A stretch of DNA of 4,239 nucleotides, from IMG/VR virus record IMGVR_UViG_648276671_000009, positions 1-4,239 of that record. The stretch is one strand, 5' to 3'. The translations under genes and the position numbers were made by a program. Of this stretch, positions 377 to 743 are shown in pieces (the first letter of the stretch is position 1; each line of letters begins with the position of its first letter). The notes beneath the pieces were generated by a model. It had not been told where the DNA came from. It saw nothing but the letters and a program-made list of their open reading frames with translations, and did not search any database. Source of the DNA: a virus (Duplodnaviria; Heunggongvirae; Uroviricota; Caudoviricetes).

Positions 377-405
377 TTGAGCTCGTTCGAGGGGATTCGT
401 ATTAT
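377..405 (+). promoter_or_regulatory. candidate sigma70 promoter for the tRNA array (possible late promoter pR' analogue)
   Basis: TTGAGC (377-382), 17-nt spacer, TATTAT (400-405); predicted start near 412, about 25 nt upstream of the first tRNA. A -10-like AATGAT lies at 421-426 in the initial transcribed region. Confidence 0.35.
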
Positions 406-436
406 ACGCCGCGCCAGCGCAATGATGCGACGGGCA

Positions 437-513
437 GGCCCTTTAGCTCAGTTGGTCAGAGCGAGCGACTCATAATCGCCAGGTCGCTGGTTCAAATCCA
501 GCAAGGGCCACCA
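437..513 (+). tRNA. tRNA-Ile2 type, anticodon CAU (lysidine type; automated tools often call it tRNA-Met)
   Basis: 77 nt with cloverleaf: acceptor GGCCCTT/AAGGGCC, D-arm GCTC..GAGC, anticodon loop CTCATAA (CAT at 471-473), T-loop TTCAAAT, encoded CCA. Close to my recollection of E. coli ileX. Confidence 0.85.
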
Positions 514-514
514 A

Positions 515-587
515 CCGCCACTAGCTCATCGGGAAGAGCGGCAACTAAATGTTGTAGTACGAGGTTCGAGGCCCCGGTGGCGGTCCA
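515..587 (+). tRNA. tRNA-like element with aberrant anticodon arm (pseudo-tRNA or non-canonical tRNA)
   Basis: 73 nt: perfect 7-bp acceptor stem CCGCCAC/GTGGCGG, D-arm GCTC/GAGC, T-arm with GTTCGAGG, encoded CCA. The anticodon arm GCAAC-TAAAT-GTTGT has only a 5-nt loop, so no canonical anticodon can be assigned. Confidence 0.5.
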
Positions 588-589
588 GT

Positions 590-665
590 GCCGACTTAGC
601 TCAGTAGGTAGAGCAACTGACTTGTAATCAGTAGGTCACCAGTTCGATTCCGGTAGTCGGCACCA
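590..665 (+). tRNA. tRNA-Thr, anticodon UGU
   Basis: 76 nt: acceptor GCCGACT/AGTCGGC, D-arm GCTC-AGTAGGTA-GAGC, anticodon stem ACTGA/TCAGT with loop CTTGTAA, T-loop TTCGATT, encoded CCA. Confidence 0.85.
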
Positions 666-668
666 TAT

Positions 669-743
669 GCGGGTATCGTATAATGGCTATTACCTCAGCC
701 TTCCAAGCTGATGATGCGGGTTCGATTCCCGCTACCCGCTCCA
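669..743 (+). tRNA. tRNA-Gly, anticodon UCC
   Basis: 75 nt: acceptor GCGGGTA/TACCCGC, anticodon stem TCAGC/GCTGA with loop CTTCCAA, T-loop TTCGATT, encoded CCA. Near-identical to my recollection of E. coli glyT. Confidence 0.85.

Follow-up and report, generated by a model that had tools for sequence, protein, structure and literature searches.

What is a short cluster of transfer RNA (tRNA) genes doing in the late region of a lambda-like prophage, and from which promoter is it transcribed? The question is raised by positions 377 to 743 of a 4,239-nucleotide stretch of DNA from a virus of the class Caudoviricetes (IMG/VR record IMGVR_UViG_648276671_000009, positions 1 to 4,239; hereafter ‘the window’), where four tRNA-type genes follow a promoter-like site. 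On balance, we favour the explanation that 377–743 is a portable tRNA cassette of lambda-like prophages, with the antiterminator gene Q on one side of it and the lysis genes on the other, and that the array is a tRNA supplement with a promoter of its own. The second of the four genes, which was passed over in a preliminary description of the window made from its letters alone, is the most interesting part of the array.

The array and the origin of its tRNAs

ARAGORN calls four genes on the plus strand, at 437–513 (anticodon CAU), 515–587 (‘Phe-AAA’), 590–665 (Thr-UGU) and 669–743 (Gly-UCC). We refer to them as units 1 to 4, and to the corresponding places in related arrays as slots. By direct reading, the spacers between them are one, two and three nucleotides long (A514, GT at 588–589 and TAT at 666–668), and an encoded CCA closes each of the four units (511–513, 585–587, 663–665 and 741–743), which confirms the tight packing claimed in the preliminary description. 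Units 1, 3 and 4 score 71.8, 73.8 and 65.6 bits against the Rfam tRNA model RF00005, compared with a gathering score of 29, and all three have the seven-nucleotide anticodon loop and the U33 of canonical bacterial tRNAs. Unit 2 falls short in each of these respects: it is not reported by RF00005 even at E≤1, nothing in Rfam 15 covers 515–587 at that threshold, and its anticodon loop lacks both the canonical length and U33. Since it has no Rfam tRNA match at E≤1, the term ‘tRNA-like’ that had been applied to this gene is apt.

Unit 1 carries its CAU anticodon on a body like that of ileX from Escherichia coli K-12, rather than on a Met or fMet body. It differs from ileZ of the Shiga toxin (Stx) phage 2851, an Stx2c phage, at two D-loop positions only; it resembles ileX as well, including a compensatory C6:G67 to U6:A67 change; and a three-way alignment of these genes has a mean column identity of 95%. 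Its homologues are annotated as tRNA-Ile by PGAP, and direct reading shows the pairs C4:G69 and C5:G68, which we take to be determinants for TilS. Unit 1 is a tRNA-Ile2 gene of the lysidine type, homologous to ileZ, as the preliminary description had it.

Units 3 and 4, identified by the same three means, come from the host. Unit 3 is an exact copy of K-12 thrU (76 of 76 nucleotides) and unit 4 is a copy of glyT (73 of 75 nucleotides), whose sole change is again a compensatory replacement of C6:G67 by U6:A67. In the host these genes belong to the operon thrU-tyrU-glyT-thrT-tufB, where tyrU and a 116-nucleotide spacer separate them. Around the array there is no tyrU, no thrT, no 116-nucleotide spacer and no host flank, and the two copies are joined by TAT alone; we conclude that two host genes were captured and fused into the phage array. 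A host-derived fragment with flanking host sequence had been named in advance as an observation that would count against a phage array: the Thr and Gly genes are indeed host-derived, but the flanking sequence, tyrU and thrT are absent.

The cassette moves as a unit. Among 14 related loci found by BLAST (93–97% identity), homology begins at 437 and the flanks are unrelated; it ends at 744 in 11 of the loci, while the other three stop after Thr and lack Gly. In complete E. coli genomes the layout Ile-X-Thr-Gly is often met downstream of Q, with X annotated as Arg-UCU or Lys-UUU; more than 100 IMG/VR viral contigs carry the cassette as well. As the preliminary description noted, and as our comparison of arrays bears out, this composition differs from the Ile/Arg/Arg set of Stx phages; it is, however, already annotated and not new. 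In itself, therefore, the array is routine, one more composition among the known tRNA clusters of lambda-like prophages, albeit one that shows plainly how two genes were copied from the host thrU-glyT operon.

The closest comparisons make both the likeness and the difference clear. The ileZ-argN-argO clusters of Stx phages 933W, Sp5 and 2851 likewise lie between Q and later late genes, are tightly packed, encode CCA and have their own promoter (for Sp5, PMC7547250), and they share 88–89% identity with units 1 and 2 of the window (437–587). Their slot 2, however, is a canonical tRNA-Arg(UCG) with a seven-nucleotide loop, whereas that of the window is non-decoding with a five-nucleotide loop; their slot 3 is Arg-UCU, in place of which the window has the host-copied Thr-UGU and Gly-UCC; and no stx genes follow in the window. 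The arrays of the E. coli prophages Sx181-0-1, AMSHJX01 and UTAK-3 are closer still, with the same four slots, the same spacers, the same Thr and Gly and, in some of them, the same promoter module, but their slot 2 has a seven-nucleotide loop and is annotated as Arg-UCU or Lys-UUU, unlike the type found in the window.

The source of the window supports its placement in a lambdoid late region, as had been proposed. The window corresponds to positions 8689–12927 of a longer locus in our collection, L250, whose Q gene (PF06530; L250 6986–7351) is some 1.7 kb ahead of the first position of the window; genes for a holin and an M15 peptidase follow downstream. The relatives likewise have Q upstream and holin and endolysin genes downstream, the arrangement that defines a lambdoid late-region tRNA cluster. 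Scaffold GL884382.1 of assembly GCA_000176655.2 carries the gene for a TerB-like protein (window 1313–1738). The window starts directly after a scaffold gap of 20 Ns, and after Q the source carries, in order, a reverse-strand gene, a copy of a unit found at 94–177 of the window, a second promoter with its array, and the gap. This second promoter and Ile/tRNA-like/Thr/Gly array (L250 8150–8688) is identical to that of the window, but the 250 nucleotides upstream of it are only about 85–90% like window 94–376. The two copies are therefore true paralogues and not one collapsed repeat; they may stand in tandem or derive from two prophages.

These facts bear on the possibility that the array does not belong to the phage at all but is host chromosomal DNA or an error of assembly. 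Such an origin might be suspected from the match of Thr and Gly to the host thrU-tyrU-glyT-thrT operon, and from a window that opens after a gap with an identical array on its far side. Yet the array has neither host flank nor tyrU or thrT, the same cassette recurs between Q and the lysis genes in the IMG/VR contigs counted above and in many complete genomes, and the differing upstream sequences of the two source copies speak against a collapsed repeat. We find an origin of this kind barely credible.

The array promoter and the late promoter

The array is preceded by a promoter-like site of the sigma-70 type, also on the plus strand, in which TTGAGC (377–382) and TATTAT (400–405) are separated by 17 nucleotides and match the consensus at nine of 12 positions. 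Because our scan finds three such sites in 1.4 kb, compared with 1.5 ± 1.4 in shuffled sequences, the hexamer match alone is weak evidence, and the support comes from conservation. The -35 hexamer, the 17-nucleotide spacing, the -10 hexamer, an AT-rich stretch upstream and the hexamer AATGAT (421–426) are all kept in four relatives, which represent two distinct versions of the region in two upstream contexts, with a mean column identity of 85%. The -10 hexamer ends 31 nucleotides before the first tRNA, and a start near 412 would give a leader of about 25 nucleotides, within 406–436, in keeping with the distance given in the preliminary description.

To what class does this promoter belong? An AT-rich upstream region and a GC-rich discriminator are the hallmark of rRNA and tRNA promoters. 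Both are seen here: the region at 266–376, which resembles an UP element and is conserved in relatives, has a GC content of 26%, while the eight nucleotides that follow the -10 hexamer (406–413) have a GC content of 87.5%. In its sequence features, at least, the site at 377–405 looks like a stable-RNA promoter.

The preliminary description favoured another role. According to that model, TTGAGC-17-TATTAT is the late promoter PR', AATGAT is a sigma-70-dependent pause element that loads the antiterminator Q, and the tRNAs lie ahead of the terminators at 843–1180 in the manner of the 6S RNA of lambda. It is true that AATGAT, with the A at its second position and the T at its sixth, is conserved in all five sequences compared, which is compatible with a sigma-dependent pause and weighs against our own reading, and that terminator-like sites do come after the array; nothing, however, ties AATGAT to Q. 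The promoter module, about 130 nucleotides long, lies some 300 nucleotides after Q in two relatives, but directly behind a DNA-methyltransferase gene in two others (ESC818 and Br190), so that it travels with the array and not with Q, and the linkage expected of PR' and its qut site, directly downstream of the cognate Q, is not seen for 377–426. In the window itself, what precedes the module is the end of an ORF6N-like gene and a terminator. Moreover, three other types of flank bring their own -35 and -10 hexamers, followed by a GC-rich run directly before the first tRNA (CTCGCTCCC, CCTGCGCCC and GCCGCGCC); in these the -10 hexamer is just nine nucleotides from the tRNA, too close for a pause element to fit in between. 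Each flank type, that is, supplies the array with its own promoter. In the Stx2 phage Sp5, whose flank type differs from that of the window, differential RNA sequencing has mapped a separate primary start and promoter between tR' and the tRNAs (PMC7547250). Finally, in Sx181 and UTAK-3 the unit directly after Q is of a different kind, the one found at 94–177 of the window, and the AT-rich stretch upstream, together with the GC-rich discriminator, is in keeping with a promoter for stable RNA. The Q-loading model therefore seems quite improbable to us. Judging from sequence features and their conservation, the site at 377–405 is quite likely a dedicated tRNA promoter, with the late promoter lying upstream, and it is probably not the late promoter at which Q is loaded.

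The unit at 94–177 is the better candidate for that role, although it is a candidate only. It comprises a promoter-like site, TTTACG-16-TATCCT (94–121), a conserved segment of 30 nucleotides (GTTAAGAGTGGTTACT.CGCCACA) and an intrinsic terminator (153–177) with an A-tract, a stem CCCGC/GCGGG, a six-nucleotide loop and a run of six Ts, all read directly on the plus strand; the promoter-like site may be a late promoter resembling PR' or the boundary of a moron. In Sx181 and UTAK-3 the homologous unit begins about 50 nucleotides after the Q stop codon and has TAGTAT as its -10 hexamer, and in copy 1 of the source our scan finds TTTACA-16-TATGCT at the equivalent place. The terminator scan picked up the homologues that follow Q in Sx181 and in source copy 1 and missed the copy at 153–177, probably because A:T pairs lengthen its stem into the T run.

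Units of the same type recur elsewhere (L001 2278–2337; L004 3060–3168 and about 4040–4075; L250 7948–8030), standing just after Q, after an ORF6N gene and, in a more diverged form, after an OB-fold gene. They may be PR'/tR' units, or else a repeated boundary at which extra genes insert.

Downstream of the array the scan reports a first terminator-like hairpin with a T run at 843–877 and two further terminator-like sites at 1109–1130 and 1152–1180, all on the plus strand; over positions 1–1400 there are five terminator-like sites, compared with 1.6 expected. By eye, the last of these (window 1147–1200) resembles the terminator between the tRNAs and stx2A in phage 2851 (L162 1750–1800), which hints that prophage tRNA arrays have a module boundary in common on their downstream side.

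It matters which of these promoters is which. Clusters of tRNAs downstream of Q appear to have their own promoters of the stable-RNA type, and these should not be taken for PR', a distinction that bears on how the control of toxin and lysis genes is modelled for Stx-type phages. Of the overall interpretation offered in the preliminary description, then, the compact array behind a promoter, the Ile2 gene, the distinctive tRNA set and the codon usage (see below) hold up, and the Q-loading late promoter is not supported.

A tRNA-shaped gene with a variable loop

What, then, is unit 2? It has a normal acceptor stem, D arm and T arm and ends in CCA, but in its minimum-free-energy fold the five-base-pair anticodon stem GCAAC/GTTGT closes a loop of only five nucleotides, TAAAT (UAAAU in the RNA). 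ARAGORN forces an AAA ‘anticodon’ upon it, and calls its relatives ‘tRNA-???’ with anticodons of two nucleotides. That unit 2 reads a codon is very unlikely, because a U-turn would need a longer loop and because U33 is missing. We also considered a loop of seven or eight nucleotides, obtained by opening the closing C:G pair, but this yields no consistent U33 or purine 37, and no decoding model fits.

The homologues of unit 2 are argN (Arg-UCG) of Stx phages and the slot-2 Arg-UCU and Lys-UUU genes of E. coli prophages, and it is three to four nucleotides shorter than these. The simplest account would be that it is a dead tRNA-Arg or tRNA-Lys gene with a deletion in its anticodon loop, without function and carried along by its neighbours. 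Besides the homology and the missing nucleotides, this account has in its favour that unit 2 is recognised by neither Rfam nor PGAP, and that decayed copies exist. Comparison of the family across arrays points the other way.

In order to sample slot 2 without bias, we gathered arrays by anchors in Ile and Thr only, which gave 119 arrays. Slot 2 is of two types: type A, with seven-nucleotide loops, and type B, with loops of five to six nucleotides, to which 30 of the arrays (23 of them unique) and the window belong. The type B scaffold reads CCGCCACTAGCTCATCGGGAAGAGCG(G/A)CAAC-[5-6 nt]-GTTGTAGTACG(A/G)GGTTCGAGGC(C/T)CCGGTGGCGG(A/T)CCA. In this sample the nucleotide diversity of the B scaffold is 0.058, similar to that of the flanking Ile (0.051) and Thr (0.072) genes, whereas that of the B loop is 0.46, about eight times the scaffold value. 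The type A scaffold, for its part, is about three times more variable than the neighbouring tRNAs. Across 45 unique B alleles of canonical length, from 83 loci, the first three variable positions of the loop have entropies of 1.75, 1.85 and 1.27 bits, the loop consensus is [C]-N-N-R-R-T, and 16 different central triplets occur; the 40 scaffold positions outside the search pattern average 0.18 bits.

The same contrast holds across genera. An exact-pattern search for the unit 2 of the window found no match in species-representative genomes, but a looser anchored pattern finds the B family in 34 of them, in genera that include Escherichia, Enterobacter, Buttiauxella, Dryocola, Citrobacter, Cedecea, Yokenella, Pluralibacter, Pseudescherichia and Rosenbergiella. 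Over 23 species-representative genomes, identity is 100% in the 12 unanchored nucleotides at the 5' end, 94.6% in the 15 at the 3' end and 92.3% in the anticodon stem and variable region, compared with 55% in the loop, 56–58% in the upstream flanks and 67% in the downstream flanks, which are near saturation. In Buttiauxella, Dryocola and Pluralibacter the promoter is the same and the first slot has decayed, and yet the B unit is intact; elsewhere the unit persists alone at chromosomal sites. Among complete E. coli genomes, the B type matches five of 5,426, at 89% identity, and is annotated in none of them.

Changes within the stems also keep their pairing: C7:G66 becomes U:A, C31 becomes U opposite G39, and A30 becomes G opposite U40. 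RNAalifold, applied to 32 family members, failed to align the anticodon arm correctly and recovered no stems other than those of the acceptor, D and T arms, with one pair changed on both sides (C7:G66 to U:A); support from covariation is thin because the stems hardly vary.

Two points must be set against a reading of this pattern as constraint. The loci from other genera were retrieved with 29 anchored bases, so that only the unanchored positions count as evidence, and decayed B copies exist as well, for example in locus L210. Even so, a scaffold as conserved as the real tRNAs beside it, near-invariant at unanchored positions between saturated flanks, is not how a dead gene behaves, and we hold the dead-gene account to be unlikely. 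From these alignments, the tRNA body of unit 2 appears to be under purifying selection, and its loop to be free or diversifying.

If unit 2 does not read codons, it may act through its body. What is conserved in it, namely acceptor stem, D/T elbow, anticodon stem and CCA, are the features of a tRNA to which RNase P, EF-Tu and the CCA-adding enzyme respond, as do several modification enzymes and many toxins directed at tRNAs. Our best guess, to judge from the pattern of conservation, is that unit 2 would serve either as a mimic, or decoy, for some tRNA-binding factor or as a processing signal. A more specific proposal, which we make tentatively and consider unlikely to be right, is that unit 2 represents an undescribed family of non-decoding, tRNA-shaped RNAs of Enterobacteriaceae and their prophages, in which the invariant body would engage a tRNA-binding machine and the hypervariable loop ([C]-N-N-R-R-U) would set the specificity. 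Were this so, one example might be a decoy or inhibitor of anticodon-directed nucleases in conflicts between prophages, and another a mimic, acting by its body only, that titrates a tRNA-processing or tRNA-modifying enzyme.

Two other uses of the loop were considered and set aside. As an antisense specificity loop it should find complements nearby, but reverse complements of the loops within 1.5 kb on either side gave 64 matches, compared with 59.8 when loops were shuffled among loci, with no preferred position. That the anticodon stem-loop is the core site of an integrase, with CAAC and GTTG as inverted arms on either side of a variable overlap, was judged unlikely, since we saw no copies that were split or duplicated, and conservation extends beyond the arms to the entire tRNA body and its CCA.

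The family is apparently undescribed and skipped by annotation pipelines. We found no description of it in the literature on prophage tRNA-like genes, tRNA decoys, unusual anticodon loops and yahM/yahL, in which subscription journals were thinly covered, so that this is weak evidence of novelty. Analogues by description are found in phage T4, whose tRNA gene cluster encodes stable tRNA-like RNAs (species 1 and 2, or RNAs C and D) that are tRNA-sized and tRNA-processed without a decoding role. They resemble unit 2 in lying, without a decoding role, inside a phage tRNA operon; they are not known to have a hypervariable loop.

Several relatives of unit 2 lie outside intact arrays, or depart from the type. 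Stand-alone or reduced copies adjoin core genes, namely ttcA together with an OmpC-family porin gene, yciA together with yciB, and a ydiY-like gene, which the copy follows (L174, L180, L183, L164, L175 and L179); the neighbourhood of ttcA is the region in which the Rac prophage integrates in E. coli. An 81-nucleotide relative with a seven-nucleotide loop, CAGGATT, and a long anticodon arm lies between yahL and yahM, just upstream of the latter (L198 2501–2581). This element is present in 5,169 of the 5,426 complete E. coli genomes, as well as in E. albertii, E. whittamii and E. ruysiae. It carries no RNA annotation, shares sequence with the start that is annotated for yahM and has no match in Rfam 15 at E≤10. 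If the specificity-loop proposal is true, this element, in about 95% of E. coli genomes, would be a domesticated member of the family. The Rfam scan of the window and of the yahM element is otherwise at chance level (Plastid-ycf2, antisense to the tRNAs, and STnc100 at 18.5 bits). Lastly, the common slot-2 ‘tRNA-Lys(UUU)’ (L002 2578–2654 and about 80 similar loci) has the loop CCTTTAA, with C33 in place of the near-universal U33, and an A.C mismatch in its T stem; it may be an impaired or altered-loop variant.

Codon supply and tRNA-directed defence

Is the cassette, then, a supplement to the host tRNA pool, or a replacement for host tRNAs that are destroyed by defence systems? If the former, the codons read by its tRNAs should be commoner in prophage genes than in those of the host. 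We counted codons, 344,331 in all, in open reading frames (ORFs) of at least 120 amino acids at 156 IMG/VR loci that bear an array, and compared them with a 50-kb sample of K-12. Per 1000 codons, ATA occurs 10.2 times in the array-bearing loci and 4.1 times in K-12, ACA 12.5 and 7.7 times, GGA 12.7 and 6.5 times, and AGA 7.1 and 4.4 times, enrichments of 1.6- to 2.5-fold that are compatible with supplementation of minor isoacceptors. The check suggested in the preliminary description, for ATA, ACA and GGA, thus comes out in its favour for all three codons. Three considerations weaken the case for supplementation. Some of the ORFs are spurious, which may inflate rare codons in the prophage sample; the seven ORFs of the window show no ACA excess, in a total of 620 codons that is too few to judge by; and Thr and Gly duplicate host genes, so that any gain would come from dosage alone.

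In the working that we propose for the cassette, a sigma-70 promoter of the stable-RNA type would produce a single precursor containing tRNA-Ile2(CAU), the tRNA-shaped RNA, tRNA-Thr(UGU) and tRNA-Gly(UCC), from which RNase P and 3' trimming would release the units, their CCA ends being already encoded. Once TilS has formed lysidine on the first, the three real tRNAs would read AUA, ACA/ACG and GGA/GGG, which are minor-isoacceptor codons used more by prophage than by host genes, and the cassette would thereby top up scarce tRNAs. In the lysogen, expression would come from the array's own promoter, with transcripts stopping at the terminators at 843–1180, before the lysis genes; after induction, antiterminated late transcription from an upstream start would read through the array and yield further tRNA. 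Gene identities and homologies, the edges of the cassette, the patterns of conservation and the codon counts are observed directly; we infer the benefit of supplementation and any role of unit 2, and it weighs against the proposal that the start site, the processing and the activity in the lysogen are drawn for this locus from analogy.

The rival view, which was also raised in the preliminary description, is that the cassette serves mainly in counter-defence, replacing host tRNAs cut by the anticodon nucleases of rival prophages rather than matching codon demand. Cleavage of tRNAs has recently emerged as a main weapon between prophages, and two such systems point towards the tRNAs of the array. 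P2-OLD kills mainly by cutting tRNA-ThrU (PMC12445682), the very species that is copied in unit 3, and the Gifsy-1 nuclease HepS, on sensing a lambda-type tail-tip protein, cuts Thr, Ile and Ser tRNAs (PMC13043305). The variation in unit 2, moreover, sits exactly in the anticodon region, where such nucleases act. Yet ThrU itself, or a phage tRNA given the unaltered anticodon arm of ThrU, gave no protection against P2-OLD (PMC12445682). Unit 3 is thrU, and unit 4 is glyT but for one pair; because both keep the anticodon arms of the host they would be cut as well, and cannot be resistant variants but could contribute at most added dosage. The codon enrichment, in turn, fits supplementation. The replacement idea is accordingly weakened, and as a main function of the cassette it seems to us rather doubtful.

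Nor does unit 2 fit the known pattern of escape. The tRNA-Lys of phage T5 is reported to escape the tRNA-cutting defence PARIS by changes in its anticodon arm (PMC11464382), and a phage tRNA-Thr escapes P2-OLD by changes of the same kind (PMC12445682). Like the B family, these tRNAs concentrate their variation in the anticodon arm of a phage-borne tRNA scaffold; unlike it, they keep a seven-nucleotide loop and a fixed anticodon, and they decode. With loops of five to six nucleotides, no U33 and at least 16 central triplets, the B family could not stand in for any single tRNA. Given the warfare by tRNA cleavage between prophages, the unit 2 family, whose members look like tRNAs, are conserved, do not decode and are carried in phage tRNA operons, is a concrete candidate for a new participant, as a decoy or as a processing element.

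Two minor observations concern neighbouring sequences. A third type of array (L204–L249, for example L204, L206 and L208, as well as L004 at about 5700–5765) has Thr-Gly behind a promoter and a hairpin of about 57 nucleotides, without Ile or slot 2. This hairpin, GGTTCYGAGG...YYGARGAACC, shows compensatory changes in its stem (GGTTCT/AGAACC in some copies, GGTTCC/GGAACC in others), and its structure therefore appears to be selected. In the window, the ‘putative holin’ gene at 1979–2373 (Phage_holin_8) is split by a one-nucleotide deletion, TT to T at about 2109, relative to an otherwise identical SRR024214 contig, and the split is probably a homopolymer sequencing error rather than the mark of a dead gene.

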